Part shown: piece after piece, positions 1,618 through 63,594 of the stretch | How positions within the stretch are numbered: position 1 is the stretch's first letter | Layout: each line of letters opens with the position of its first letter | DNA from: Schmidtea polychroa | Taxonomy: Eukaryota | Assembly: GCA_044892525.1 (NCBI GenBank) | Contig: CM097885.1 | Coordinates: 173,538,001 to 173,602,000 of the forward strand | Length of the DNA stretch: 64,000 bases | Reading direction: 5' to 3' | Program-made: the position numbers and the translations under genes | The notes under the pieces: generated by a model | Database searches by the model: none | The model's input: the letters and a program-made list of their open reading frames with translations, nothing else | What the model was told of the DNA's origin: nothing

Positions 1618-2109
1618 TACTTAAATTAATATTTAATTAGATTTAAAATTTCAAATTAAAAAAATATTTAATATATAAAAAACGTTTTTTTTATAAAATA
1701 AAATATTAAAAATTTAAAATTTAATTAAATTACAGAATTTAAAATTAAAAAAAATAGGAAATGTTATTTGAGTAATTAAAATAAAATAGAAATAGAATAT
1801 AATTAAACCAATAAATTTATTATAAAATACGTAATAAATTTATTATCCACCAACAATAATTATTTAATGTAATAATGATCAAATTCACTTGGAAAAGGCA
1901 GTGCTGAAGATTAGTGAGTATCAACAAACATCGATATATTACTGATTNNNNNNNNNNNNNNNNNNNNNNNNNNNNNNNNNNNNNNNNNNNNNNNNNNNNN
2001 NNNNNNNNNNNNNNNNNNNNNNNNNNNNNNNNNNNNNNNNNNNNNNNNNNNNNNNNNNNNNNNNNNNNNNNNNNNNNNNNNNNNNNNNNNNNNNNNNNNN
2101 NNNNNNATT

Positions 2110-3115
2110 GAAATTTGCATCTAAATTTGTCTGTGAAAATTATTTCATTAAAATTTCCTTTTTTAAATTTGTCTTTGAAAATTAATCAATTAAAATTTCT
2201 ATTAAAAATTGACTTAAAAACTTTCATTTAAATGTCTTTAAAAATTATCTTAAAAATTTATTCCATTAAATTATTAAGTTATTATTTCAATTAAGTTATT
2301 ATTTCAATTTACTTATTTAAAAATTAATACTTTAACTTACCTATTTAAAAATAATAACTTTAATTTACTTATTTAACTTTAATTTAATTTTAAGACTATT
2401 GATTACTTAATTAAAAAATTTGAACCCAATTTACATATTTATTCTTGTATTACTTAATTTAACATTTTATAACATATTTTACTTAACAACCGAATATAAC
2501 CCTTATATACATATTTAACCAATAATTTGATGTAGTGAATGATTAATTGACAAAGATTTGCATCTAAAATTGACTTTAAAAATTATTTCATAAAAGTTTC
2601 CATTAAAAATTACCTTAAAAAAATAATCCATAAAAATTTTCATTAAAAATTAACTTAAAAAATAATCCATAAAATTTTCTATTAAAAAATTTTAAATCTC
2701 AAACACCGACTATTATTCTAACTTTTTGTTAATAAATTTAAAAATTATTACTTTAATTTTAAAATTTGAACGATAATTTACTTTAATTTAATTTTTTAGA
2801 ACCTTCATTTACTTTAATTAAAAATTTGAACCATAATTTACATTAATTTTAAAATTTAGCCCTTAATTTACTTATTTGAGCCCATTGATTACTTATATTA
2901 AAAATTTAGCTCTTAATTTACTTTAATTTAATTTTTTAGAACCTTAATTTACTTTAATTAAAAAATTTACCACGCTTTTTAGCGTAGACCACCTTTTTCT
3001 ATTGAAAATATCCTGAGACCTTAAATTACCAAGCTTTTTAGTGATAATCGGATTTCGTATTGATTATCCTAGGACCAAAGAGACCTTCTCACTATAGTCT
3101 AAAAAATCCTGGCTT
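2110..3115. repeat. Terminus-less copy of the Polinton-like repeat arm
   Basis: Colinear with about 24540-25640 (ATTTGCATCTAAA, AACAACCGAATATAACCCTTAT, GGACCAAAGAGACCTTCTCACTATAGTC). Confidence 0.75.
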
Positions 3116-3486
3116 TTTTTCTATAGGGCCTATCTAACTGTATTTTTGGTTTAAAATTCACACTAAATGGTAAAATACACAATTACATTGTAAAATATTA
3201 AAATTGATGTGGTCATCAATATTCATATATTAAATATACCTACACTTTGTTAAAAATTTGGACATAAAAAAATGACCAAAAGCTATAGATCACATATACA
3301 CAAATACATCCATACAAAATTCATTGAAAATTTACACAATAAAAGTTAACAATATGAAAATTTGTTTCAAAGATATACATTAGATATACAACTCAACTAT
3401 TGTATTGCTCATATAATATAAATACAATATCAATCGAAAAAAAATCAGAGGTGAAAATTGGGAAAAAGTGCTTATAGTCATTATTT

Positions 3487-9900: not shown

Positions 9901-12900
9901 GCAATAAAATTTCAATCGTTTTTATAATTATGAGTCTAAAAAATAATTAACATTATTAAGAATTTTCAAATTCTTTTTCATTTCAAATTCATTTTCTAAA
10001 AACAATGTTCATAGCGATTTTAGCAATAATTATATATTATATAAACCAAATTTTGAATAATCTTTGGAGAATATTTATAATGACTTTTCACATTCTATGC
10101 GATTTCAACATACTGCAATCATACAAATACAATTTAATATATTATATTATAAATTATATAAAGCCATATTTATATTAAAGATAAATTTATTGTTAGATTT
10201 ATCTCACAAACATTATGTTAAAAAAGAAGTTAAAAGAAGTAAATTTGACAAAAAATAGGTTGGTTAAACAGCAAAAAAACGAACCTTTCTCAATACTGAG
10301 AGAATCTATAGCGCGATATCCAGCATTGACTAATCCATGAAGTTTTCCAACTTTTGTTATTGAATGATAAATGCTTTTGGCATAATCCTTCGGAATGTGT
10401 AATTCCCATCCCATTTCGCCAACAAACGATAATCGTAATGCACGACATGGCACATCATTAATTTGTATTAGCTAAATGAATTTGTGATTATAAAACAATA
10501 TTATAAAACAATATGCCACAAAATTATCGGGCGATCAATGATGACATAATTGATGTGTGTAAATGATCGAGGTTTCAATGATGTGATTCAATTATAAAAT
10601 GTTTATTTGTTGTTTCAATTAAGTTGCGACAATTTTAAATATTTACTTTATTTAGGTATATTTTTAAAAATAACATTGATGGCACTTTAGAATTTAAAAT
10701 TTATTACATTATTCGATCAAAAACGAGTGGACGAATGCTGAGTTGAACGAAGACTAATTCGATATGCAGAGTCAACTTTCAAGATTAAAGTCAGATTTTT
10801 ATTAGACGTTTAATTGATAGACAGTCGAGATATCCTTCATACAGTTTTAAAAAATATCAATATTTTTTTAATAAAAAATTGGGTTCGAAAGCGGTTCCAA
10901 AATATCGGTTTTCAAATTTTATCATTAAAACCAAAATCGAGCTCTTAAAACCGGTTTTTAACGATTTTTAGTTTTAGTTGCCTCTGAAAATTAGATTTTT
11001 AAAAAACTTTTGTCATTACAAAATGTTATCGATTACTTTCGAGCAAAAAAAATTTATATCTGTCAATGTGTTCATTAATACTAATGTATGACTAATTTTT
11101 CGAATCACATCAATTATATTGTTTTATGCAATAATGTTAGTATAAAGTTTCCATAATAATATTAATTTAAAAATTCTTCATTGTTTAGTCCAGTGTTTCT
11201 CAAACTATGGGTCGCGACCCATTTTTGGGTCGCGAAAGAATTTTTGGTGGGTCGCGATGACTTATGGAAAGATCTACAAATATAAATTTTGGAAGTTTAA
11301 GCCTTTTAAATTTATTTAATCTTTGTCATGTGGGTCGCAATAAAATTTTTGGCATGAAATGTCAAAAATTTGGGTCGTGATCAAAAAAGTTTGAGAACCA
11401 CTGGTTTAGTCCGTCTGAAATTTTTTTTTCTATCGTAGTATCATTCCAAAACGTTTTCAATCACTCCTGAGCAAAAATATAACTATTGAATCATAATTCA
11501 AAACTCTTATAAATTTGTGATAGGAGTTCTAGGTGATTAAAAATGATTTTAAGAAAGTAATATCTCTCACATTTTAATAGAAAAGTATTAATATTTATCA
11601 ACCTTACTATGTCAAAAATGAAATCAAACGTATGGACTTACTTTGTTCGGAAGAACAAAGATGAAGCTCAATGCACCAAGTGTCAAAAAAGAGTTATCTT
11701 CATAATCCAGCAATGTTTACTGAAGAGTCAAACTAAAGAGCTTTTCCTTTTCCAAAACAAGTATTGAAGAAGTATAATGAACGAACATACAAGAGATTAT
11801 TTCTAGAACACCGCGAGATCAAAGAAAAAAATGTTGCCTCAACGAGTTCAGTCTTCGATGGAGATGATCAACTCATGATTGAGTATATTCGTGCGATTCA
11901 TAAATTATAAAATCGGTTTTAATCAGTTTTGATTAATGCGTATCAGTTAAATTCGGTTTTGAATTTATCGATTTGTTACGAACTTTACGAACGAAGAAAA
12001 TAGTGACTTGTAGTAAATAGGTATGTGTTAATCTTTCATTTGAAAATAATAAATCAAAAAAATACTAATACAAACTTTTTGAGTTGAGAATGGGAAGGCT
12101 TCATTGGAAAAATCGGTATCTGATAACGACTGTAAAATCTGTCGACTAAGAAGAAATTAAACTGTCAATTATTAATTCATTTTATATATACATAAATACA
12201 GTAGGATCTGTCCAAAAAGTACATAGTATTACAAGTTCACCCACAAAAAGAAGTGCAATGTTAAGGAACTCGACCGGGAAGGGGCACGTATCTGTCTTTT
12301 AGCTCTGTGGTTTAAGTACACCATTAATAAGAACACTTTAAGATATTTCCCATTCCAAAATATATATTAAATGATTACTATTAAATGTTTATTTTATGAA
12401 TTCTATACGCCAAAATTTATCCAAATGTACAAGAGAAAGGTTAGCATCAATGTCAAACTTAAAATTATAAATTATCTTGATATTGATGACAGTATCCGTG
12501 AACTAGCTGAGCACTTCAAAGTCAATAAAGGAGTCGTTCTAAATGCCATGAAACAAAAATCATATAAAATAGACAAGTTGAACACTAATACGTCAAGAAT
12601 TTGTGATAACATCGAGGTAAACATCTTAATTTTGTGTTTGTTCAAGGTTTCTCTTTCTCAGCTCTATTGCTCGAAGCAAAATCACTCGAATTAAATATTG
12701 CTTTGGTTTCTGATACAATGATGAAAGCGTCTGATGGCTAGTTGAGAATTTAAAGAAGTGTCACCACATTTTGTTCAGATTGATAAGCGGACAGTCTGAA
12801 ATGTTGATAGTGATTCGTCAAAAGAATGGAAGAAAGGTTTTGTAACCATTTTCAAATACTGCCATTCCAGCAATATTTTCAACATTGGCGAAACAGGTTA

Positions 12901-15900: not shown

Positions 15901-17009
15901 AATAAGAATCTTGACTATGAATCAGCAAATATATCAAAAACATCGATATATTAACTGATTCATAGTCTAGCTTCTTAATAAATACAATGTCAATGGAAAA
16001 GAAATCAGTGGCGAAATTTGAAAAAAAGTTCTTATTATTAGTAGATATAAGTTATACACACATGCTACACAGTTTAAAGAAATACACCAACACTATCGAA
16101 ATTATTCATGTTAAGTCAATAAATAACATCTTTTATTTAAATATTGTCGATTTTATATTGATTATTTGAGTGTTCCTGACAGTATTTCGACGATAATTGG
16201 TTCATTTCGAAGGGTTCTCTCAGAGTATCTGAATTCTTATTGTGATGATCCAAGGTATTGCAAGGGTATCGCAATGGTCATTTTGAAGGGTTTTACGGAC
16301 GGTCAAAACTTATATAATCATGCGCGCATGTATATTCCTAATGAACAAATTGTATTTTTCTTACCAATTCGCGCTTTTTGATAATGCTATTTTTGAATTT
16401 TTAAACGTGAAAAACTGGTGATTTTGGGTTCCTATTCTAAACTGATGTCCAGAAAATAATCGCATTATTGTTATAGCAATCTAGATATGATTAATTGTTA
16501 ATCCCTGTTCCTGGTAATTTTACCCTTTTAGCTCTCGTTATCAATTTACTTACTAAAACACTATAACACTTTTGGCTTAACCCTTTCCAGCCCAGTGATT
16601 CCAAATGGAATCATTAGTTAAAAACTCAGTTTTTTTCTCTTTACTACCAAAACGGTTGGCAGTAACTAGTGAGAACTATAGTAAGATATGTTTTTAACAG
16701 TTGGCACAATTTTTATTTTAAAAAATGAAGTAAAATATTTTTATGATAAAATAAGTAGTTTTGGTACCTACTTACTGCATATATATTTTTTTTTGTTTTG
16801 AAAAAATTTGGGCTGGAAAGGGTTAAGAAAACCCATTCCCTTGCTCTCATCTTTCAAATTTCCGATGACAGAGCCAAGGTTCATCGAATATAATGGGTGA
16901 GAAGGATCGTAATTTGAGGTATATAATAGGTTATCGGTAAAAATCGCCAGTAGTAATACATCTAATTTAAATTTTTTTATTTCTAAGAAGAAACTGTCAG
17001 TGTCTCCGG

Positions 17010-17059
<50 letters not shown>

Positions 17060-20000
17060 CAATTAAATTGTCGTCTGTATTTCTGAAATTCATTATATTA
17101 GACTTGGTACATCCGCAATTTAGACAGATCTAACACTGATTCTTCAATGTAGCTAGATCTGCCTTTATTCAGATGAGAAACAATCAAATCACCATCAATT
17201 CTGATATATAATGTTCCAGCGGAGACTATGTATTTTAAAGTAGAGTTTTATATAAATGTAATTTATTGTCTTGACATGAATAATTTCTATAGTGTGCTAG
17301 CAAGACTAATGTTTGAAGGTGTGTGTGTGTGTGTAATTAATATATAGTGTTGGTGTATTTCTTTAAACTGTGTAGCATGTGTGTATAACTTATATCTTTT
17401 TTACGAGTGTGTGTGTGTATGATATACTTATTTATTAAATCGATATGGCCTACTTATTTATTTATTAAAACTATATAGTATATATTGTGCCAGTGTGGAC
17501 TATGTTATTATGAGTATGTGTCTGTGACATACTTATTTTATATTCTGTGCCAGCGGGAACTATGTTTTATAGTCGATTTGAACTACTTAAAATTTGATTA
17601 ATTTAACGTGAAAAACTTAAAAATTCTGTAAATTATTTAATATATTTAATAATTTTCCACAAAGGTAACATCCGTAAATAATGCCTTTCTGAAAGTCTGT
17701 AAGCTATCCGAGTAGCCATATTCTAAGTAAATGACAATCCTTCATTAACACGACTCGTTTTTGTGTGCCTGGTATGAGTAGTAATATTCTGTGTGAGTCT
17801 GTGTGCGTGTGGACATGTGCGCATGCAGCATGTTGAAGGTTTTGGTGACCATTGTTCCCATTGCGGTTCATATTTGCACTGCAGACGTTCATTATAAACT
17901 GCAATATGTAAATAACTGCCTAACTGGAGACTGTGTAGCATGTGTGTATAACTTATATCTTTTTTACGAGTGTGTGTGTGTGTATGATATACTTATTTAT
18001 TAAATCGATATGGCCTACTTATTTATTTATTAAAACTATATAGTATATATTGTGCCAGTGTGGACTATGTTTTTATGAGTATGTGTCTGTGACATACTTA
18101 TTTTATATTCTGTGCCAGTGGGAACTGTTTTATAGTCGATTTGAACTACTTAAAATTTGATTAATTTAACGTGAAAAACTTAAAAATTCTGTAAATTATT
18201 TAATATATTGTCAGAAGTAAATATAAAATATTTGAACATAGCATAATGATATAAAATTTTAAAATAGATTATAACTAAAACTCGAATGAAAGAAAATGGA
18301 CAGATAATATAAAAAAATGGACATGCCTAAAATTCTAAAAAATCAAAACGTACCACATCATGACTTTTAGGGAAATTAAAAGTGTAGTCCCCTGCCAGCA
18401 CATCTCTATATTCGTAATTTTTGTGTTGTTCCTTTTCATAGCTTCCGTAGAAATCATACGGCAGTAACTAAGTAAATATAATTAAACATTTAAATATCAC
18501 GAAAACAAAAAATACCTCTGGTTTAGTATTACAATACCAACCCGGTCTTTCAAAACCTTGTCGCTCTTGATACATACAGCCTTGCTGTAAAAGTTCCTAT
18601 ATATTAACGAAATTTAATGGATTTCGTTCATTTTTTTTAAAACACTCAAAACATGGCAACGACTTTAGATATAAAGCCATACCAGAAATAGAAAATTAAT
18701 GAAATAAAAACCCACGTTTAATCAATACTGTGCAAATTTGATTAATTATATTAATTATTAACATTTATTAAATGAAAATATGCGTAAGGACAATATTTAT
18801 ATTTATTTATTAGTCATATTTCATTCATAGATTTATACCCGGCCTACCAAAAGTCTCCAGTCAGGCTGTTATTTACATATTGCAGTTTATAATGTACAGC
18901 AATAAGAACAAATGTCACAAACACACACGAATACTGAATGTCTGTAGTGCTGAGAGGTTAGTACTTCGTTATATTAACTTTCATCTGGATAACAAGGCGC
19001 ACTTTTGCCAGGAAATCAGTGGATATGTGTGACCATTCCTCATGCAGATGCACTTCCAGTTTGGAGGCGTTTCGGGCAATGTAAATCCTTTTGCGAACTC
19101 GTCTACCAAGGACGTCCCACAGTAACTCAATAGGATTCAGATCAGGGCTTTGTGGAACCCAATCCAAAACGTTGATGCTGTGCTGAAGAAAGAATTTCTT
19201 CATAATGTGCGAAGTATGGATTGGTGGATTATTTTGTTGGAAAATGATTTCTGGGAGAAAGGGAACAAGCTCATTTTCCAGAATGGCACGGTATTCCACT
19301 TACATCATGTGATTGCTGTACTTAACTAGGGGGCCAGTTCCACGAGCTGAGAAAAGACTCCAAAACATGATGAAATCGTTCTCTACACGACGCCAGCAGA
19401 ATTGCTGTCCATCAGATTTGAAAATAGTAAAACGTGATTCATCACTCCAAATGACTGAGCGCCATTGTTCTGCTGTTCAACTCCTTCTCTCCCGGCACCA
19501 CTTCAAGCGACAACGACGAATTGTTTTTGTAATCAAAGGCTTCCTTGTGCAGTATCTGCTATAGAAACAATGAAAATGCAATGAGTGTCGAATGATGAAC
19601 ATGCTGGGATGCACAGGGCCAGTGTTAAATGTGGACACTAACTTGGACAGGGGAAACCAACGATGAGCCACCACAAGTCGTTTCAGCTGCCGTTGTGTAC
19701 GGATGCTCAAAAGTTTAGAGCGGCCTGAACGTTGCTTGTTGACATGTGTCTGCTCCTGGGGTACTTCCTCAGGAAGTAGTTAATAGTTCCTTTGGGATGG
19801 TCAGTCAATGCAGCAGTTTCACACTGACTTTTTCCACAAAGGTAACATCCGTAAATAATGCCTTTCTGAAAGTCTGTAAGCTATCCGAGTAGCCATATTC
19901 TAAGTAAATGACAATCCTTCATTAACACGACTCATTTTTGTGTGCCTGGTATGAGTAGTAATATTCTGTGTGAGTCTGTGTGCGTGTGGACATGTGCGTG

Positions 20001-23000
20001 TGGACATGTGCGCATGCAGCATGTTGAAGGTTTTGGTGATCATTGTTCCCATTGCGGTTCATATTTGCACTGCAGACGTTCATTATAAACTGCAATATGT
20101 AAATAACTGCCTAACTGGAGACTTTTGGTAAGCCTGTGTTATCAATATATGATTGTAGTGTGATGAATTAACGATTTCCTTAAATATTTATGTTTGAATA
20201 ATATAGTTTTCTGCATGATTTGCAAATGATTTCTAATTCTAACAGTATGAATGACTTGGTTTATTGAATTCCCTGTTTATATATTGCTCTACATTAAAAG
20301 TGTTTCGCTATATATTTTGTTAAATAAGAGAATATTTTGAATTAATAAAAATTAGCATCAAAATTTCTATTTTGGATGTGTAGGAGTGAAGTTATTAAAA
20401 ATCATTCGCATATTTAATTATTATGAGGCACTCACAAATATGACAAGAATTTCTTAATGCCTTATTATTTTAGTATAATTAAGATCAGAATTGAATAATT
20501 TGTATATATAGTGAGTAGCACCCTGCCAACACCTACATTAATTAATCACTTAAATTCCCCGACATTCCACTAATTACTATCACTTATAATCTCCCAACAA
20601 ATATTTCTTTTAAAATTATTTTTTTAAAGTGATAATTTTAAATAAATGCAATTAATACTCATCCATTCTTATCCACCTTCATCTTATCTATGCCACTTCT
20701 CAGTATTTACCTCCCATAATCCATTAATGAATAATTCTATCACTAATTTTCATCCATTTGAATTTCATTATTAATTTATCATAGAATAATGAATAATTCT
20801 TACCATAATAAAGATTCTTACCATCTTCATTGTTAGTTTTTTATCTATGTTATTATAACTATCTTTCGATTTTACGATGCTTTCCATTTTAGAATAAGAT
20901 TTTTTTATCCAAATTTGTGATAATTTGACTGATTCAATGATAGATTTGATAGAGTTAATTCCTTTTATTATATATACTGAGTTTATCTGACAAGATGTTT
21001 TGTCCCCTTATGGGTACTGGTCATAAGGGTATTGGTCCTAAGGGTACTGGTCGTAAAGGTACTGGTCGTAAAGGTACTGGTGTGTTCTAATGATTTTATT
21101 TGGGCAAATTTGGGTGTTAAAGGCATTCATTGGTAGTTTTTAAAGAGTTGATGTTAGCGGGATTTAGTAAATATCTATCATTTTCGTGAATTTTATGTTG
21201 ATTTTATTGTTAATTCTAAGATAAATTTAATTAATTTCTTGATAATTGTCTGTATTTTTATTGACTTATTTTTTAATTTAATTTTAAATAAAAATTAATT
21301 TTAATGGCAGTTAGGTTATTAATCAAGTGATAGGTTAAATTTTGATGATGATATTGAATTTCAATTTCAATTTCATGTTGAATTTCATGAATTTCATGTT
21401 GACTGAAAGAATATTTTAAAATTTAAGGTCTTAATGGTGATTAATTTAAATGATAAATTTAATTAATTTCTTGATAATTAGATGTATTTTACTGGCTTGT
21501 TTTTAATTTTAAATAAAAATTAATTTTAATGACAGTTAGGTTAATAATCAAGTGATAGGATTAATTTTTGATGATGACTTTGTAATGACATTGAATTTGA
21601 CTAAATAATTTTTTCAATAATTTTCTAAGAATATTTCAATTTACACATTGATGAACTTAAATATTAAAAAACATAAGCTAAAAAACCAGTTAACTTTATC
21701 AAATTTACTTGAAAATTATTGTGGAATATACTGAAATCTGTGATTTAGTTTGCTATTATTGCTTGAAAATGATTGGCTGAATTGCTGAAGAATTATGATC
21801 AATCAATATATATCATCTCTAGTTAGGTATTTGATGGATAAAATATTTGTAGAAAATATTGAATTTTGATCTTTTAGTGGGCTCTTACTACATAGTTACC
21901 AAATCATTTTAATGAAAGAATATTTGGTGTCTGTAACAATTAAATAAAATTCAAATTTTTGAAGTTCTCTAAGGATTTTAAGAGGATTGACTGAATTAAG
22001 AGGGATATAACTTCAAGTGTGTAGAATTAAGGGATATAGTCGGTTAGATATTGATGTTTAAAGGGGTAGAAATATTTGGTAAAAGATCGGTTAAGATGGG
22101 AATATATTATTTTAAAGGCGGATATAGTCGGTTGGATTTAATGAGGAATGGGATAAGGTCGGAATATATGATTTTTTGGGGATATAGTCGGTTAGATTTA
22201 ATGGGGGATCGGTTAATATGGGAATCTTTTGAATATTTAAATGGGTAATGTTGATAAAATATCATGTTTTAAGGGAAATTGCAATACATTAGTCAATTTT
22301 GAATCAATAATAATGTGAAATTATATCGTTTTGTTAAGTTGTGATGAATTCATTGTAAATTAATTTAGATATCTGGTTTAAAACAATGTTTTATTAATTT
22401 TCTATTAATTATCCAGAGTTTAATTAAGTAGTGTTAATGACAATAAAATCTTTACAGATAATTGGGATTGATATCAACTTTAAATTATTTTTATCTTTAT
22501 GTAAATGTTATAGGTAAACAAAAGTTGAGAAATATTGACTTAAAAAAGTTGTACATCGACTAAAGATGTCGACTAAATTATAACTGATTTTATCAATAGA
22601 TTTTATAAATTGTTTAGAGTTAATGATTTTAGAAGATCTTAGTGAAATGTGTGATTATAGGAATTAAAGATATAGTTATAGTCATTTAAAGGGATTTTAA
22701 GGAATCTTATTAGTCTGACGGAAATATATAACCTTTTAAGGATATTTATCGAAAAAATACTAATCTTTAAAGACAGAGATATTTCAGGGAAATTTGATGG
22801 TTTTAGATGACTTTATTAGAGAATTCGCGCCAAATTAATAATAGATGATTTTAGTGAAATATTTGTAATAAGAGTAGATATATAGTCATTTAGAGATTTT
22901 AAGGAATATTATCAGTCTGGGGAGAATATATGATCTTTCACAAGTACTTATCATTAAAAAACCAATCTTTAAATATTGATATATTTAGGGATCATTTTAT

Positions 23001-26000
23001 TTGAGAATTCGCTTGGATATAACAAATATTGTCATTTAAATGGATTTACTAGTTTATTAGATGTTATCATTAGTGGGTTTATATCAGTCTCTTTTGAAAT
23101 ATAATGATAATTATTTTTAGTGTAGATTGCCGACTTTGATAATTGTAATGAATTTATACTGAATTTTTTGAATATTTTGAGCAGTCAATCAATTTGAGTA
23201 TACATGTATTACAATTTTGAAAAAATTATTAAAATTATTTTTATTTCAATTAATTTATTCAATTAAATCAATTATCAACTAGATCTTATTTCAAAATTCT
23301 TATTAATTTATTATCTTAGAATCTAAGACTTAGATGATTCATATTTACTTGAATGAATAGTATTTTTTTATTTACTGGGTGATTAATGATTAGAATTTAA
23401 AGTTATTTCTTGTCCACTAATTACATTTTTATGATATTTATTTATTATGTTTTGAATAATTTAAATTTATACAATTATTTAATCAATTTTACCAAGTTAT
23501 TTTTCATCCAATTTTTTCAAATAAAGAGGATTTTCTTTTAAAGATCAATTTGTTAGTACATAATTGTTGGTATTTGTTAATAAGTATTTGGTCGTTAGTA
23601 CTTGGTATCTGGTTGATAGAGTTTAGTTATAGATGTTGACAAGAAGATAGTGTATGTGATGAAAAATATTTTGTATTTAATTGCTATTATTTCTAGTTGT
23701 AAGTACTTGGTTGATAGTGCTTGGTATCTTGTTGTAAGTACTTGGTATCTCGTTGGTTGCTTGTTGTTGTTAGCTAGTGAAGATATATTTTTAGTATCTA
23801 GTAGCTGGTTGTTGGCAGGTTATAAGTAATTGGTACTTGGTATCTTGTTGTGAGTACTAGGTATCTAGTTGTTAGCTGGTTGTAGGTTGATATTTGTTAA
23901 TTTCTCGATGGGTTTTGATGTGGTTTTTAGAATCTAGTTAATTGGTAGGTGGGGGAATGAGTGTGACCAATACCCTTAAGATCAATACCCTTAATATCAA
24001 TTCCCTTACGACCAATACCCATATGACCAGTACCCATAGAGGGTCAAAACATTCTGACGGATAAACTCTGAGTATATATAATAAAATGAATTATAATTAA
24101 CTATTTATTGAATTTTTTTTTACTTTGCAATAATAAGTCAGTAGTAATCAATTAAAAGAAGAATTTTTTGTGAATAAGAATTAGAATTCTAGTCTTTCAT
24201 TGTAATTTAAATTATTTTCAATTCAACGTAGTGTTTTAAAGTGGTTGACAATTATTTATTTTTGATGAAAATCATCATTTTTGTTAAATTTAGACATTTA
24301 GAAAGTTTTTCTACTGATTGTAATTAAAAATATTTTTGAAGACAAATAAAAAAATTAATTTAAAAATCATTTGATAAAATACAATGAAGAATACTTAGTT
24401 GGTTTTTAGTACATGATATCTAGTTGTAAGTACTTGGTACTTATTTATTAGTACCTAGTTAAAAATATTTAGTAGTCGGTAGTTGGTAGCAGATTGTAAA
24501 TAGTGCCTAAATAGTACCATGTTGTTAGGTATCTAGTGACTTAAAAAATATTTCATAAAAATTTCATATTTAAAATTGACTTAAAAAAATATTTCATTAA
24601 AAAATATTTTAGAAAATTATTCCATTAAAATTTCCAATAAAAAATTTCATTTCTCAAAAAAGTTAATGATTATTCGATCTTTTGATAATAAATTTAAAAA
24701 TCTTACTTTAATTTACTTATTACATTACTTATTTAACTTTAATTTAAAATTGTAGACCATTGATTACTTAATTTAAAAAATTGGACCTTAATTTACTTAA
24801 ATTTAACCCTTTATTTACTTAATTTAACCTTTGTTTACCAAATATTACTTTAATTTACTTATTTATCCTTAATTTACCTATTTATCCTTGTATTACGTAA
24901 TTTAACATTTTACAACATAATTTATTTAACAACCGAATATAACCCTTATTTACATATTTAACCAATAATTTCATGTAGTGATTGATTAATTGACAAAGAT
25001 TTACATCTAATATTGACTCTGAAAATTATTTCATAAAAATTTCCAGCTAAAATCGACTTGGACAATTATTTCATAAAAATTTCGATTAAAAATTATCTTA
25101 AAAACTTATTTGATTAAAATTTCCATTAAAAATTATCTTAAAGAATTATTTCATTTAAATTTTCATTAAAAAATTTCATTTCTCAAAAAAGTTGGTGGTT
25201 ATTCAATCTTTTGATAATAAATTTAAAAATCTTACTTTAATTTACTTATTACATTACTTTAATTTAATTATTTTAAAAATTACTACGTTAACTTTAATTT
25301 AAAATTCTAGACCATTGATTACTTAATTTAAAAATTTAGACCATAATTTACTTATTTGAACCCATTGATTACTTCAATTTAAAATTTAGACCTTAATTTA
25401 CTTTAATTTAAAATTTTAGACCATTGAATACTTAATTCAAAAATCTGAACCCATATTTTACTGTAATTTAATTTTTAGACCCATAATTTAGATATTTACC
25501 ATGCTTATTTAGTGAAGACCACCCTTTTTGTATTAAAATTCTCAGGACCAAGGAGCTCATCTTACTTTACTTAGAAAATTCTATGATTTTTATCGATGAT
25601 TGAATTTTATATTGAAAATCCCAGGACCATTGAGACCCCTCACTATAGTCAGAGAAATCTTGGCCTTTTTTGTATTGAAAATTTTATTTTGTATTGAAAA
25701 TCCCAGAAAAAATATGAGTGGCTCCCTGCCGCAATTACATAATCAAAAAAGCAAAAAAAACGAGTTGCCGCAAACCCCCACAAGAGGAGGTGCTGCGGCA
25801 GGGAGCTACTAACTACCTACTATAGTGTATAAGACAATGCTTCATGTCAAGCCATCAATAGGATAATAAAAAATGTTTTCATAAAATGTATATTTTACAA
25901 AGAACATAATTTTTTATGATAGCTAACAATTTTCTAGTATCGATTAAACAAAAACCAGAATATTTGTGCCATTGTAATTAATACTTAAAATCAAGACATT

Positions 26001-49600: not shown

Positions 49601-49724
49601 TACTCTACTGTTTTTACTCTTTTTGTTACTTTTAACAGGTCTGATCGAGATTTAAGTGTAACCATGTATAGGCAGAATTTAATTCTCTACAACATGGCGC
49701 AATTAAAACTTTAGTTTGTCGCTT

Positions 49725-50020
49725 TGTGTGTAATACACACATGTTTTTACGATAAATTTGTATTTTTCATACAGTTAACGTAATTTTCTTAGGATTTTAT
49801 TCATATAATATATAGATAAAATTTAATTTTCTATAAAATAGCTTGATTAAAATTTATGTCTCGTATGTTGTGTGTAATACACACATGTTTTTACGATAAA
49901 TTTGTATTTTTCATACAGTTAACGTAATTTTCTTAGGATTTTATTCATATAATATATAGATAAAATTTAATTTTCTATAAAATGGATTGATTAGAAATTA
50001 TGTATCTTGTTTTGTGTGTG
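49725..50020. repeat. 144-bp tandem duplication, paralogous to about 39890-40195
   Basis: TGTGTGTAATACACACATG... starts at 49725 and 49869; a partial third unit starts at 50013. Confidence 0.85.
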
Positions 50021-50580
50021 ACAAGCGATGTATCTGCAATTAATTCTCCTGACATTGTTGTTCCAGATTGTCTCATCAAAGAAATAGAAGATCATATTCA
50101 ACGAATGGGGACAGTAAAAATCCAATTTGGACTTTGTGCAGAGTTTATCAAAGAGGATGGTTAAATTAAAAAATGGTGTTTGTCGAATAAAGCAATTACA
50201 ATGTCATCTTCATTTATTAATGATGGAATTGAAAAATTAAAAGAAAAGTTGGAGAAATACACTCAACAAAGTAGTGGGTGGAGAATTCATAAAATATTAG
50301 AAGTTACTATGATTTTAACTAAATTATCAGACATAATACATGTATCTGGTAAGTTTATTTACATTATTATATATATAAATCAAGATATTTACTTAGGTTC
50401 AAGTTACATTAAAACGCCAAATTACCTGAAAAACTGTCAGGCTTTAGTTAATGTTCAAAATAATGATCAATTCTGCTTTTTATATAGCATACTGGCCGTA
50501 TTACATTATGATGACATAAAACATCACAGAGAAAGAATAATGAAATATAATTTAAGTGGTAATATATATTTATATCATTC

Positions 50581-50640
<60 letters not shown>

Positions 50641-53504
50641 GAGTTAAAATGGAAATCAGATTGGTTTCCAATGAAGTTGGTTAACATTTGCCAATTTGAA
50701 GCAATGAATCCAAATCTAGCGATCAATGTTCTCAAATATAATAAAGATCCAATTAAACAAAAAACTAATGATATTTTCAAGAATCCGTTCGTTGACTTGG
50801 TATATAGAAGTACTTCGACGGGATCTCAATTATATCTCTTATTGATTGAAGAAGGTAATATTTCCTTTAATCATTAAAAACTTTAACTAAATTTTAGAAT
50901 TAAATTATCACTTTTTGGCTGTAACTAATCTCGATCGACTGCTCAATTACAGAAATAGAGTAGAAGGAGTCAGAATCCAATCACATTGGTGTCATACGTG
51001 TCTTCATGGGTTTCAAAAACGTCCTGCTTTTGAAAGACATATAGGTCTTTGTAGGAAGAATGTGGAGTGGACGACTCTATACTCAATGCCAGAGAATAAA
51101 TATATCGAATTTAAAGACTGGAGTAAAACTATAAAACAGCAGTTTGTTGTCTACGCGGACTTTGAATCAATATTACCTCTAGATGACAAGCACTTCCAAA
51201 AACATGAGCGATTTTGCATCTGAATTTGTGCTTCTTCATCAAGGTTGTCCGATTCGAAATGAAACATTTGTTGGGAAAAACTGTATCATTCAGTTTATAC
51301 AAGCATTGGATGATATAGCTACAGACATAGTTTATCCGTGGTATAAAATTAATGGATCGAAGGAAATGATGGAACTCACTTGGGAACAGCAGGAAGAATT
51401 TACGAATCAAACTCATTGCTACCTTTGTAAAAAGATTATCAATATACCTGTTCGAGATCATGATCATTTTACTGGTCAATATCTCGGAGCAGCGTGTCAA
51501 GATTGCAACTTGGCTAGAAGAATCAATCCGTCTTTACCTGTTGTATTTCATAATCTTCGTGGATATGACATTCATCATATATTAAAATATGCAATTGGAA
51601 AATTCCCCGATTGGAATTTAAATGTTATTCCTCAATCAACAGAAAAGTTTCTCACACTTACAGCGACATCGAAAGGCAGAAGAATTAGATTCATTGATTC
51701 TTTACAATTTTTAAATAGCAGCTTGGCAAATTTATCAAAAAATTTACCATGTCTTCCACTGACCTCAGATGTTTTCGAATCACAGATGATGACTTGTAAA
51801 ACCATTTTTCCTTATGATATGGCTACATCAATGGATGTTTTACAGTCAATAACAGAATTACCACCGATTTGGGAGGGAGTTAGTGAAGAAGATTATATAC
51901 ATGCAAATCGAATCTGGCGACAATACAACTGTGAGACACTGCTAGATTACATGCTAATATATCTCAAGTTGGATGTTTTTCTGTTGGCCGATGTTTTTGA
52001 AGCTTTTAGAGAAAAAACATTTGACGAAGATGGACTTGAGGCTCTATCGTTTGTTTCCATACCCGGATTAAGTTGGGCATCAGCTATTAAACAGTTACCT
52101 GAACCGGTAGAACTTATTCAAGATCCAGAGCTTTGCCGTTTATTTGAAGCTGGTATTCGTGGTGGAATGACATTTATCAACAAACATCATGTTGAAGCTG
52201 ATGAATCAACACAAATGTCATACTTAGATGTTAATAATTTATATGGATGGGCGCTGTCGCAAAAACTTCCTGTTGGGGAATTTAGATGGTTAGAAGATCA
52301 GACTGAAATGAATGGTATTGTTGAAAGATGTGCAAATGGGGATGAGTTTGATGGAGATCGTGGATATGTTCTAGAGGTTGACATCGTCATTCCTGATAGT
52401 ATACAAGATAAGCTAGATGATTTACCTATAGCTCCTGAGCTTTGTTTTCCGCCTGGTAGTAAAATTGAAAAGCTGTTGTTAACTCATGAGCCTAAGAAAA
52501 ACTATGTAGTTAATGGTAGAGTTTTGACAGAGTGGTTGAGTTACGGCGCAAAAGTCACAAAAGTTAATCGTGCTGTAGAATTCAAACAAGTGGCTATTTT
52601 CAAAGGATATATTGATTACAATACCAAAATGAGAGCAGCTAGTACGGATTCGTTTCAGCGAGATTATTATAAGTTAAAGAACAACAGTTTATACGGTAAA
52701 ACTGTGGAAAACTTGAAGAAACGTATAAATTTGAGATTATGCAACAAAAGCAAAAGATTGATAACTTATTGTAGTCATCCTATGTTTCGTCGTAGCATCA
52801 AGATTGCGGATGATCTCATTGCTGTTATACTCAATAAGGAAATTGTGTGTTTAGATAGACCAATGTATATTGGACAAACCGTACTTGATTTATCCAAACT
52901 TCGCATGTACCAATTTCAATATAAAGAACTACAGAGTTATAGAGAAGAATTCAATTGTCAAATTAATATCGTAGCTGGTGACACAGATTCCTTCTTTTTG
53001 GAGTGTAAAAATGTAGATTTACGCTTACAACTATATCCAAAAATGATTGAAGATGGGCTCCTAGATACTTCAAATTATCCAGTGACCGATCCGTTGTTCT
53101 CTGATAAAATCTGTTCTGTAATCGGGAAAGTTAAGGATGAGAATAAAGGAAATCAATATAAAGAATGGGTGTTTCTTCGACCCAAGTGCTACTCACTCCA
53201 AGGCGATAAAAACACTCTAAAAGCCAAAGGAATAAGACTTACAAATTCTAATATTACACATGAAGCCTATAAAAAAGTGTATACTGATGGTGGAACAGTG
53301 AGCATCCCACAAAAAAGAATAGGAAGTGTCAATCATCAGTTGTATACTTTCATGACAGACAAATGAGCTCTCCAATGTTTGGATGATAAAAGATATTGGT
53401 TCAATTCTAATGAAAGCTATGCCTACGGTCACTATAAGATTCGTCAAATGCATATTGCAACTGCTATGTCTAGAAATGAATGCAAATCGAAACAAGCACT
53501 TTAA
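50020..53504 (+). pseudogene. polB: Protein-primed family B DNA polymerase (Polinton/Maverick/adintovirus type), three introns, disrupted
   Basis: Motifs: SSGWRI, GSSYIKTP..VNVQNNDQFCFLYSILA, ExoI VYADFES, DHDHFTGQYLGAACQDCNL, ExoII VFHNLRGYD, FIDSLQFL, ExoIII LKLDVFLLADVF, motif A YLDVNNLYGWAL, motif B KLKNNSLYGK, motif C AGDTDS, C-terminal DDKRYW...AYGHYKI. Introns 50349-50396, 50559-50641 and 50855-50897. Lesions: TAA at 50162, a frameshift near 51210, and TGA at 53364 followed by a conserved in-frame tail to TAA at 53502-53504. Confidence 0.92.
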
Positions 53505-54264
53505 CAATTAAATTTATGTGAATAATAAAATATATATTGTGAATAATTTGTCTTCGTTAATTAAAATATGTTTTATCATTTAATAATTCATTTGTCCAAT
53601 TATTTTAGATAATTAGTTTCAAGTAAGAAATATTATTTTCGTGTTTATTTTATTTATTTATTTATTTTTTCCGAAATATTAATATCCGGTTTATCTAAAA
53701 TTAAATCATCGTTTTATTTTATAATAAGTTAAATAATTTCTAATTAAAATTTTATTCGAATTGAATAATTACTAACTAAAATTTTATTCAAATTGAAATA
53801 TTATTGTTACAATTTACACTCTTGTTAGAATATATTAAATGTCAATGTAAAATAATAACAATAAAAAAAAATAATAATCATAATGATAAATAAAAAAAAA
53901 TAAATAAATAAATAAATAAAAATATTAAAATTAAAAAAAAAAATCAATTAAATAACGTAAGTAATTAAAATAAAATATTAATAAATAATTAATTAATTAA
54001 ATGTAATAAATTGAAAATTAACTAAAGTAATTAATTAAAGCAAAAACATAATAAAATAATTAATTAAATGTAATAAATTGAAAATTAACTAAAGTAATTA
54101 ATTAAAACAAAAAACATAATAAATAAAATGATTCGATTGACCTATATTTGATCTGGACATTGGGATGACCTTGAAAGTGTCCTGGAGTCCTCATTATATA
54201 CTACTAATTTGATTTAGGAAAAGTAAATTTAAATTATTATTTACCGTTTGAATTTTAGCCCAAA

Positions 54265-55125
54265 GTGAATCGATATAACCTCAGAAGTCAGAAACAAACC
54301 CAAATGGCAAATGCTAGTTGCCAAAAATTACCAGTTAATCAATATGGAGGAGACCCTTTTGAGTTCGCTGATTTTATGGACGATTACTATATGTATGCGT
54401 CAGCATATGGATGGTCAGAAGAGATAATGGTGCAAAGATTTCCGTTATATTTGAAAGGAACAGTCAAAGAAGTCTGGAAGCAAATAAATAAGAAAATAGT
54501 TGAAAATGACTGGAATAAATTAAAAGATACGTTGGAAAGTAAATTTATATGCCCTGATATTAGAAGGATGACGAAGAAAACATTTTATCAAAGAATACAA
54601 GGATCAGATGAATCCATTATTGAATTTGGGTACAATTTTATTTCATTGGCGAGGAAGGCATTCTCAGTAAACTCTGTTAATGATGACATTAATATTCATA
54701 ATATTATTATCGATATATTTCTGAAGGGTATCAACAATGATTTGAAATCAATGGCTGCTATGGTACAATATGATGATGTGTTTGATTTAATAAGGAAACC
54801 TTCAAGTGTTGAACGAATGATGGCTGATTGTAATAAGCTCAAAGATTATTATGTCCAAGGCTTCAAACATAAAGTGAGAAGTAGTGATTTCCCGTATCAT
54901 CCGAATGTTAATTATAGCCACTTAAATACTTTTAATGATATATATGATATTGAAATAAATCCTTCCTCATGTAATTATGAATCTAAAAATCACAGAATTA
55001 GTGATATCCTTTCGGAAAAAATTGATCAAAATATTTTGAATATTGAAGATAAGTGTCAGCTGTATAAAGGTTGCCGTGTAAACGATCAAGTTCTGTACTT
55101 AGGGAGTTTGTGTGAAAGAAGATGA
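54265..55125 (+). CDS. Retrotransposon gag (capsid-like) ORF, likely a Ty3/gypsy remnant
   Basis: First Met at 54304. YGGDPFEFADFMDDY..AYGWSEE..FPLYLKG..FYQRIQGSDESIIEF..IFLKGI fits a Ty3-type capsid pattern. No pol follows. Confidence 0.7.
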   Translation: MNRYNLRSQKQTQMANASCQKLPVNQYGGDPFEFADFMDDYYMYASAYGWSEEIMVQRFPLYLKGTVKEVWKQINKKIVENDWNKLKDTLESKFICPDIRRMTKKTFYQRIQGSDESIIEFGYNFISLARKAFSVNSVNDDINIHNIIIDIFLKGINNDLKSMAAMVQYDDVFDLIRKPSSVERMMADCNKLKDYYVQGFKHKVRSSDFPYHPNVNYSHLNTFNDIYDIEINPSSCNYESKNHRISDILSEKIDQNILNIEDKCQLYKGCRVNDQVLYLGSLCERR

Positions 55126-60940: not shown

Positions 60941-61600
60941 AGCACAGTAAGAAATTTCGTTACAAAATCATTAATAATGTAATAAATGAAATAAATTTTG
61001 TATGATTGTAATTAATATAGTAATACTTTTAATAATTATCACTACTTAGACATATATTATTTTTTGTTTAAATAATATTTGAATTCTTAGGTTTTTTAAA
61101 AATTAAAATACGACACAATTTTTAGCACACTTTAAAGATTTTTAAGTATTAATAATTTTAACCTATTTTTTTATACTACTTTATATGATTTTAATGTTTA
61201 TAATAATTTTAGAATTGATTATGAGATCTCCAGATTTAAAGAAAGTTGCTATAAAGATGAAACAGGAAGGTAACAGGAAGGTAAAATTTTGGATTTCTAT
61301 GCATCAATAAGATTGAGACTGTGTAAAGTTCTGAGTAATCACGGAAATTTGTATAATTGTTAAGTATTAGTGTGTATAAATAAAGTGTGCTAAAAATTGT
61401 GTCGTATTTTAATTTTTAAAAAACCTAAGAATTCAAATATTATTTAAACAAAAAATAATATATGTCTAAGTAGTGATAATTATTAAAAGTATTACTATAT
61501 TAATTACAATCATACAAAATTTATTTCATTTATTACATTATTCATGATTTTGTAACGAAATTTCTTACTGTGCTAAAAATAGTGTCGGGCAGTATATATA
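60941..61600. mobile_element. Foldback/MITE-like inverted repeat
   Basis: 60941-61135 is nearly the exact reverse complement of 61381-61574, with a spacer of about 245 bp. The left arm enters an N gap. Confidence 0.85.
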
Positions 61601-61792: not shown

Positions 61793-63594
61793 TAATTGAC
61801 TATTAAAATAACTTTTAAAATAATTTTTAAATTGAATTTTTTAAATTGAGATTTTAAAATTTTAAAATTTATAAATTAAACAAGCTTTTTATTAGTAAAT
61901 CATTTTTAAATAAATATATTTTAAATATCGAAATTTTAATAAATGGTTTTGAACATATTTTACTCAACGCTGAAAATTTGTTATTATACAATATTTCATT
62001 CAAATAAATGGAATTATGACGTTTACTTTTGAACCGGATTTAAAAAATAATTTAGAAGATGTGTTAGCATTTTCTTATAAGTTACATTGAGATATTTTGA
62101 CGGGCTATTTTGTTGGGTGCCAGTCACCGGATAATTTAAAGTATCCAGGAGCCCATTAGTAATGATTTTTGAAGGCAGTTGTGAGCATAAGTTAATCCCT
62201 AAAAGAACTAGATCCTTATTTCAAAATTTGTGCTTTTTCATTATTTTTGGTTATTTTTCGTCTGAAGTCGATGTTGACACACCCAATAAATAAACCAAAT
62301 ATCAAAGAGCTATTTACCACGAACATTGTGTTTAGGTTAATTTTAATTTCCACGTGTTGTTGACTTGATTTTTTGATAAGTGAATTTTTAGAGCCAGTAG
62401 ATAATGCAATCAGTGTTGAAAGTAATAAAGAAACAGACTATTGAGGATATCAGTAATGAACGGTATTGGATAACAATCATGAATAGAAATTGACAAATGT
62501 TGGAAGATATGGTGATCTCATAGTGAGCCATTGAATTATCTTTTCGAAATTTATATAAATATTGTTGGGCTTTTATTTGTCATAATATTAAACATTTATT
62601 AGAAATCAATTTGGTAAATCTTTTGCTATTGCTTTTTATTAACCATAAATAAAATCGTCGAGAAGTATCAGACTTTGGCTACGATCAAACCAAAAGCATG
62701 TTGTGATTCCTGATCTACTTATATGTAATTTAATCGCCGTGGTATTCTGCGATACTGGGCTTACCTTTTACCACCAGAACACGTATTTAACCAAGCGTTA
62801 CTAGTCGTCATTCACACGGGTCACATGAGTATACCGATAAACGGCGCAGTGAAATTACTCCAGATGAACGGGGTAGTACAACTGCCACTCCCTGTGATAC
62901 ATGCTATTTTACTTCCTTGTCAGTTGAAGTGCTGAGGACGAAAAGACTTTGAACTAAGTATTATTGAAAGCTATCTCGCCCTAAGAAAAGTAAAAACCTT
63001 TTGTTAGAAACGAATTCTATTCAATGACATTATACAATTACAATACCATAATAAATAGAAACAAAATCCTTACTTCCGTGGTCAGATTCGTTTACAAAAA
63101 GATTGTAGTTGAGACTCACAAATCGATTAAATTGTGACTGAAAATGCCACGGTCTGTATACCGTAATTTTTGTGTGCGAGTATGTGTGCGTACATTGATT
63201 CAGTAAAACAAATTTGAATTATTTAATTCAACTTAATTTTGAATCTTAAATTTTATCAATTTTGATGGCGGTTTTCGTAATTTTTTATTTATTTTGTTTT
63301 CTAGTCTATACATTTTATTTATTTTTAATTATTTTCGACGCCATGATGGATATGGGTGTTTTCTAGAATATTCTATGTCGTTTTCAGAGATTTTATTACC
63401 TAATTCCTATTTATTTTAATTCCTATATTATTTCAGGTTAATTTTTTTTTCTAATTTAACTTTTCAAATTTTATCTTTAATTTAATTTCTACTAGCTTCT
63501 TGGCGGCCATGATGGATTTCGTCACTTTTATTGAATATTCTTGTTTCTATTCATTGATATTTTAAATATTTTATCCTTACTTTATTATCTAACG

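Follow-up and report, generated by a model that had tools for sequence, protein, structure and literature searches.

A gene-less 5.3-kb insertion with Polinton-type ends in a planarian intron, one copy of an abundant family most likely derived from Polinton/Maverick elements

Polinton/Maverick elements are defined by target-site duplications (TSDs) that are 6 bp long and by ends of AG or AGT repeats, which are thought to serve jumping-back initiation, and in vertebrates the intact copies are 12.7-24.6 kb long, with terminal inverted repeats (TIRs) that measure 46-1,447 bp (PMC8097293). The present analysis concerned a 5.3-kb element in a 64,000-nt stretch of the genome of Schmidtea polychroa (contig CM097885.1, positions 173,538,001 to 173,602,000; the window), which had the composition of AT-rich animal DNA. 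The element resembled Polinton/Maverick elements in its 6-bp TSD, in its AG...CT ends of short repeats and in an arm homologous to that of a neighbour bearing a protein-primed DNA polymerase B (pPolB), but it differed in having no pPolB, integrase, ATPase, protease or capsid genes, in its length of 5.3 kb, in its 21-nt TIR and in its AGTAG motif (PMC8097293, PMC6431247). By genes, size and TIR the element is not a Polinton. Judged by its sequence features, it behaves as a non-autonomous Polinton derivative: the ends and one arm were shared with a gene-carrying Polinton piece (at 46998, with pPolB), and the interior was multi-copy. Non-autonomous Polintons, as Kapitonov and Jurka in 2006 and Repbase reportedly describe them, are gene-less, have Polinton-type ends and a 6-bp TSD, are presumably moved in trans and keep long TIRs. 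The element was like them in being gene-less, in end type and in TSD, and unlike them in having no long TIRs. The term “non-autonomous polintons” has also been used for Tlr1 elements, which carry genes (PMC5499653). Non-autonomous DNA transposons and miniature inverted-repeat transposable elements are likewise gene-less and mosaic through recombination between elements, although the element was larger than most of them and had Polinton-type ends; the same source reports no non-autonomous Polinton copies in Anolis (PMC3014272).

The element occupied positions 20514-25821 (5,308 bp) and ran from AGTAG to CTACT, with one ATAGTG abutting the first letter of AGTAG (20514) and a second abutting the last letter of CTACT (25821). 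The junctions were followed in contigs aligned to the window at 90% likeness. Of seven sequencing runs of one organism from two studies, six held 0.38-0.58 of the sampled words and X7 held 0.03; the contigs came from X1-X4, and X5-X7 were left out. The features at the two ends were as follows.

20508-20513: left copy of the TSD ATAGTG, 6 bp, crossed by single-copy contigs in 4/4 runs
20514-20534, plus strand: left terminus, beginning with AGTAG, an imperfect 21-nt inverted repeat matching nt 12-34 at the right end (19/21 letters, one 2-nt gap), without the outer 11 nt of the family and at single-copy depth at 20520 and 20534
25721-25806: sub-terminal hairpin with a perfect 13-bp stem (25721-25733 / 25794-25806; z -4.6, 0/200 shuffles)
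25811-25821, minus strand: right terminus, outer 11 nt, in the form common to the ends at 736, 1116 and 46998 (comparison of ends)
25822-25827: right copy of the TSD ATAGTG, 6 bp, bridged by the X4 contig 25745-26790

The window held 814 AGTAG/CTACT pairs. Three of them had matching 6-nt flanks where chance would give about 0.76 (814 x 0.00094), and this test was weak on its own; the third such pair, 30570/61046, had unrelated ends and was probably due to chance. The left 14 nt matched the sub-terminal 14 nt of the right end with a single mismatch (expectation 0.0009 in the window, both strands), which lay at 20520 and disappeared in runs X1 and X2, and the match of the flanking 6-mers (p 0.00034) was additional to it. 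The 21-nt stretch had a different sequence at the other three ends that share this type (736, 1116 and 46998). Because it differed in these ends, the stretch, which on this comparison is private to this copy or its subfamily, joins both ends into one element. The element is a discrete insertion flanked by a duplication of 6 bp, and the two ATAGTG copies together with the inverted end match bore out the 5.3-kb unit proposed in an earlier note made from the sequence alone.

That note had also described the arms as asymmetric and the right end as extended by extra units. The ends were indeed unequal, the right one holding two AGTAG units and one 11-nt unit more than the left, but the direction was the reverse. 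All four of the window's ends of this type (736, 1116, 25821 and 46998) had the long form (11 nt followed by AGTAG), and therefore the left end is the shortened one, by one unit and not several. No long TIR was detected by local alignment or nhmmer, since the left arm did not match the right arm and the 21-nt imperfect repeat was the only TIR. The hairpin was rejected as a family trait, being significant at one of the four ends of the same type (z -1.0, -1.5 and -1.8 at the others) and at 0/3 other ends. A preference for ATAGTG as the target was likewise rejected, as four other flanks differed (TAAATG, CTCATC, AATAAG and TAAATT). The sub-terminal repeat of this family, 81/101 nt long, itself has ATAGTG as its core: the string ACT + ATAGTG + AG occurred 11 times in the window, always within arms of this type, and sites with the core were located at 20508-20513, at 25639-25649 and in arms at 438-976, 3088-3098 and 47126-47318. 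The agreement between the TSD and the repeat core is probably a coincidence, as the flanks were otherwise unlike the repeat and the four other flanks differed.

A mover other than a Polinton, namely a DDE transposase of the Ginger, hAT or Mutator/foldback type, was considered extremely improbable. The tandem-rich arms did resemble those of foldback elements, and hAT and Tc1 remnants were present in the window. TSDs of hAT and Mutator elements are 8 bp and 9 bp long, respectively, which does not fit this locus, and 7- or 8-bp flank matches were found in 0/814 pairs. The TGTNR termini and 4-5-bp TSDs given for Ginger1 and Ginger2 (PMC2836005) were both absent from the element, and the same end type led into pPolB at 46998.

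The element encodes nothing, in agreement with the earlier claim that it had no coding capacity. The longest stop-free frame was 78 aa, compared with 80 +/- 14 aa in 200 shuffles, 102 of which reached 78 aa. A set of 1,204 Polinton-related queries, consisting of 120 pPolB homologues and 1,084 open reading frames (ORFs) of 87 related loci, was compared with the element and yielded one weak match (E 0.002, 37 aa). No tblastn match was obtained from the 120 pPolB homologues, and the 1,084 ORFs, which included the integrase, ATPase and capsid-like ORFs of a metagenomic contig described below (L021), detected no integrase, ATPase, protease or capsid gene beyond that weak match. The Rfam search of the element gave one sub-threshold match only (19.6 bits against a cut-off of 60) and ARAGORN found 0 tRNAs in the window, so that neither search detected 7SL or tRNA-like cargo in the element.

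The connection with Polintons came from two other elements in the window.

46998-53435, plus strand: Polinton piece with the same end type, a tandem arm and an interrupted pPolB with an endonuclease VII domain (PF03175, E 5e-30; PF02945, E 2e-4; tblastn)
39109-41330 including the duplication (element 39115-41324, 2.2 kb): second short element with AGTAG...CTACT ends and a TAAATG duplication, whose TIRs were identical at 370/375 letters (98.7%)

The pPolB of the first piece could be traced in several frames over 50012-53435 (tblastn), and no matching right end was found for this piece downstream in the window. The right arm of the 5.3-kb element was 70-78% like 46998-49492 (blastn), a region that runs on into the pPolB. 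The assignment of the ends to the Polinton type was supported by this arrangement, and the right arm proved to be related to the 46998 family as proposed, at 70-78% only. The homologues of the 46998 pPolB were unnamed metagenomic proteins. In the metagenomic contig L021, in which 10 ORFs were scanned, a pPolB 51% identical to that of 46998 was accompanied by an rve integrase (E 1e-12), an A32-like ATPase (E 2e-6) and a TBP (PF00352, E 2e-17, at 10321-10764 on the minus strand); the nearest atlas clusters of a 408-aa ORF were double-jelly-roll proteins (score 0.98; Pfam on 65% of members). The predicted products of L021 make up a Polinton gene set. Loci of pPolB homologues were collected with an alignment as the query, which gave 12 in viral contigs (27-34%) and 75 in metagenomes; a single pPolB query gave no match in the viral contigs. 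At the DNA level the only likeness between these loci and the element was an AT-rich match of 49 nt (L025, E 3e-5), which was taken as chance. A pattern of the terminal 17 nt had 13 matches in viral contigs, which were rejected as chance since all were without blastn similarity to the element, and a pattern of the 27-nt sub-terminal repeat had 0 matches in metagenome contigs.

The second short element was located 13 kb from the 5.3-kb element and is the younger of the two, given TIRs that are 98.7% alike. Its interior (39806-40196) was 89% like the 144-nt repeats upstream of pPolB at 49620-50009. Because the two proposed donors thus share 391 nt at 89%, these modules are a common property of several families. 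Of the length of the 5.3-kb element, 33% resembled the 46998 family, 3% the 39115 family and 64% neither. The earlier description of a chimera of these two families was therefore overstated, as most of the element matched neither and its nearest kin was a separate abundant family at 90% likeness or more.

Inside its ends the element consisted of the following parts.

20535-20932: left arm, C-skewed, with no counterpart in the right arm or at any other place in the window (six local alignments, z -0.5 to 2.9; no nhmmer match), with repeat depth rising across it
20933-21082, plus strand: left inner inverted repeat, pointing inward, with a TATA-like AT run, the 75-95-nt motif and 15-nt tandem units (array at 21012-21081); 83% like the right copy and 84% like 39305-39379 over 75 nt
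21083-23690: interior, G-skewed, non-coding, with local duplications and highly repeated in the genome (repeat analysis, contig depth)
23691-23907, minus strand: 21-nt tandem module, kin to 48194-48650 of the 46998 element (sequence comparison)
23965-24112, minus strand: right inner inverted repeat, pointing inward, without a TSD or AG..CT ends of its own (0/47 flank-matching boundary pairs with such ends)
24113-24309: spacer between the inner repeat and the right arm, with a junction present in other copies (contigs with 6-9 differences over 24144-24256, 24256-24372 and 24267-24400)
24310-25821, minus strand: right arm of stacked tandem modules (21, 13/27/40, 30 and ~81 nt), homologous to 46998-49492, 1-1116 and 2107-3124 (blastn 70-78%; nhmmer)

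Read inward from the right end, the order was hairpin, ~81-nt, 30-nt, 13/27/40-nt and 21-nt modules, spacer, right inner repeat, 21-nt module, interior, left inner repeat and the 400-nt left arm. The nhmmer matches of the right arm reached E 1e-32, with 0 matches in the reversed control. Duplications within the interior were found at 21210-21351/21441-21577 (86%) and 22630-22790/22842-22991 (74%), together with 60-nt units at 22085-22225, and a part of the interior matched 27851-27966 at 78%. The possibility that the left arm was a decayed mirror of the right, 46998 or 39115 arm was rejected (best z 2.9 in six tests, no nhmmer match). A comparison of the element with itself by nhmmer revealed no whole-element palindrome: the inner repeat pair alone was inverted, so that about 150 + 21 nt were inverted per side.

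The two inner repeats agreed at 120 of 144 aligned letters (83%). The earlier note had derived them from the TIR family of 39115-41324, and what remained of this was a shared motif of 75-95 nt (80-84%) and nothing more, amounting to 3% of the element. The motif started 451 nt from the left end and 1,735 nt from the right end of the 5.3-kb element and 190-200 nt from the ends of the 39115-41324 element, and it pointed inward in both. At its four sites (20965-21058, 24007-24086, 39305-39399 and 41030-41126) the TATA-like run came first and the 15-nt units followed, in arms that were otherwise unrelated. This inward motif is a candidate cis-element, possibly a promoter or a replication signal.

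The inner repeats also raised the question of nested or adjacent insertions, in which the 150-nt inverted repeats would delimit an inner element lying in or beside the arm of another family and the chimera would be local. The motif shared with the 39115 TIR and the 21-nt modules on both sides of the right inner repeat fit this arrangement, and nesting was seen elsewhere in the window, where the family end at 736 lay (620-736) within the sub-terminal repeats of another copy ending at 1116. The unit bounded by the inner repeats was nevertheless rejected as a separate element, as none of the 47 flank-matching boundary pairs around them combined AG..CT ends with a duplication. No drop in depth was seen at the outer edges of the inner repeats, and the outer ends shared the copy-specific motif and the TSD. 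Nesting is accordingly very unlikely as the origin of the structure.

The copy number and the junctions were assessed with the contigs. Summed contig depth is no copy number, and the worst-case overlap of contigs was corrected by dividing by 31. The flanks were single-copy, with depths of 32-44 in X1, X2 and X4 and about 280-314 in X3. Across 20843-25704 the summed depth in X4 was 54,000-755,000, which was 1,600-23,000 times that of the flank and 53-738 times after the division. Relatives at 90% or more covered 20620-25700 without a gap, and an alternative letter made up at least 5% of the depth at 156-177 of 6,611 places. Because so many contig relatives were at 90% or more, the nearest kin of the interior is closer than either family in the window, and the element is one copy of a separate abundant family with many close relatives in the genome. 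The contigs covering 24144-24400 with 6-9 differences indicated that the junction of spacer and right arm was not private to this locus, and joints and loose contig ends revealed that the arrangement of modules differed in other copies. The left junction was crossed by one contig in 4/4 runs and in both studies. The crossing contigs of X3 and X4, possibly from the very sample behind the window, agreed with it throughout. Those of X1 and X2, which belong to the other study, showed 11 and 8 differences, respectively, and 3 and 2 gaps; the copy was common to two sequenced lineages whose flanks differ by about 1-2%.

An assembly collapse or mis-join of a longer repeat, which would make the 5.3-kb length and the asymmetry artefacts, was considered highly improbable. 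The element was spanned by no contig and the best run held 0.58 of the sampled words, as this explanation would allow. Exact contigs from X3/X4, however, covered both junctions as well as 20757-20907, 21058-21173 and 24455-24601 with a depth that was single-copy or close to it, and the left contigs of X1 and X2 extended 160-200 nt into the unusual left arm.

Taken with the coding results, the contigs bear on another origin, in which a longer Polinton or foldback derivative with full TIRs was inserted and then lost its genes and most of its left arm in place, so that the 5.3-kb form never moved. Such a deletion would explain why the left TIR is only 21 nt long and lacks the outer 11 nt, and why depth falls steadily towards the left end. 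Broken Polinton pieces were common in the window (46998 without a right end, pPolB fragments at 16464-17205 and 62125-62211), and 96% of vertebrate Maverick loci are eroded (PMC8097293). Against it, there were zero coding relics, relatives at 90% or more covered 20620-25700 unbroken and bridged the junctions at 24144-24400, and the inward motif stood on both sides as it does in intact TIR pairs. Deletion in place is the main alternative and is judged unlikely.

The family is most likely an abundant, gene-less one whose sequence comes from the termini and the non-coding arms of Polinton/Maverick elements. Insertion by a Polinton integrase is very probable: this enzyme, of the retroviral type, would need only the AGT...ACT ends and would leave 6 bp. 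That the element moved already gene-less and in trans is somewhat favoured, in which case autonomous Polintons of this genome would have supplied the polymerase that copied the unit and the integrase that inserted it. The Polinton-type ends, TSD, lack of genes and arm link behind the earlier proposal of a non-autonomous derivative all stood, and its movement in trans is plausible. The arms may have been reshuffled through slippage and recombination among the tandem modules. The outer 11 nt on the left would most simply have been lost between two AGTAG repeats, either by slippage or by initiation at the inner repeat in protein-primed copying; the loss cannot be dated relative to the insertion because a deletion between AGTAG repeats keeps the TSD intact either way. 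The copy would now be passive in the intron.

Several observations weigh against a derivation from Polintons by movement in trans. The TIR of 21 nt falls short of the 46-1,447 bp of intact vertebrate Mavericks, and the AGTAG motif does not fully agree with the vertebrate (AGT)2 or (AG)3 (PMC8097293). The right junction was bridged (by at least 31 letters) in only 1/4 runs, X4, which was identical to the window and perhaps its source. Depth was single-copy at 20520, 20534 and 25788 and the first and last 40-80 nt were unrepeated, hence no second copy with these two ends was seen; the tips of the element are variable among copies on both sides. The left arm was far rarer than the interior, the depth in X4 being 563 at 20553, 1,920 at 20577, 13,243 at 20658 and 100,904 at 20877 over a flank of about 33. 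No joint skipping the element, as expected from an empty site, was present among 15 of 892 joints, and none of the four runs had an element-spanning contig. Genes for an integrase or a capsid were not found in the window, so that no helper with these ends was seen.

The element was wholly intronic, with blocks of a sarcosine dehydrogenase gene at 26510-26361 and 18593-18336 on either side (tblastn).

~45190 to 3984, minus strand: sarcosine dehydrogenase gene, 13 exon-like tblastn blocks
18594-26360, minus strand: intron of this gene containing the 5.3-kb element (tblastn blocks)

The same intron held a Tc1/mariner remnant at 18806-20171 (PF01498, PF13358), 340 nt to the left of the element and with ends 82% inverted. 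A hAT-like transposase remnant was recognized by eye at 37534-39043, without a Pfam match at E 0.01, and stopped a little short of the 39115 element, and a hAT dimerisation domain was found at 42393-42851 (E 2e-7). The pPolB fragments at 16464-17205 and 62125-62211 were both on the minus strand and about 52% like metagenomic homologues. A retrotransposon gag ORF (54259-55125) came after the Polinton piece at 46998-53435, and an inverted repeat at 60941-61574 had arms of 194 nt, 99% complementary and 246 nt apart.

A search by titles and abstract openings found no literature on gene-less asymmetric Polinton derivatives, which leaves their absence unproven, since Repbase and most subscription papers were outside its scope and the supplements of the Dugesia preprint may list some. 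That preprint reports that Mavericks have expanded in Dugesia and that this is a factor driving planarian genome size (10.64898/2025.12.11.693146). In one planarian, Polintons are targeted by piRNAs (PMC8532177), and the Polinton life cycle is described as awaiting experimental characterisation (PMC5499653). Gene-less copies with clean 6-bp duplications form a natural record of the sequences required in cis. They are informative on these needs because Polinton transposition is not known to have been reconstituted. It is rather doubtful that the asymmetry is a family trait, that is, that the family is a satellite in hundreds to thousands of copies with a TIR of about 20 nt, one end at the inner AGTAG and an internal 150-nt inverted motif, common to several Polinton families, replacing long TIRs. 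If many copies share the short left TIR, the requirement for long TIRs would be wrong or would be satisfied by the internal repeat; if not, the element would simply add to the eroded Polinton derivatives of a genome rich in Polintons. Movement with borrowed Polinton enzymes, the likeliest course here, is a fairly ordinary fate for such elements. If the asymmetric form with a short TIR is truly mobile, the minimal cis-signals of Polinton replication and integration would be defined from natural sequence.

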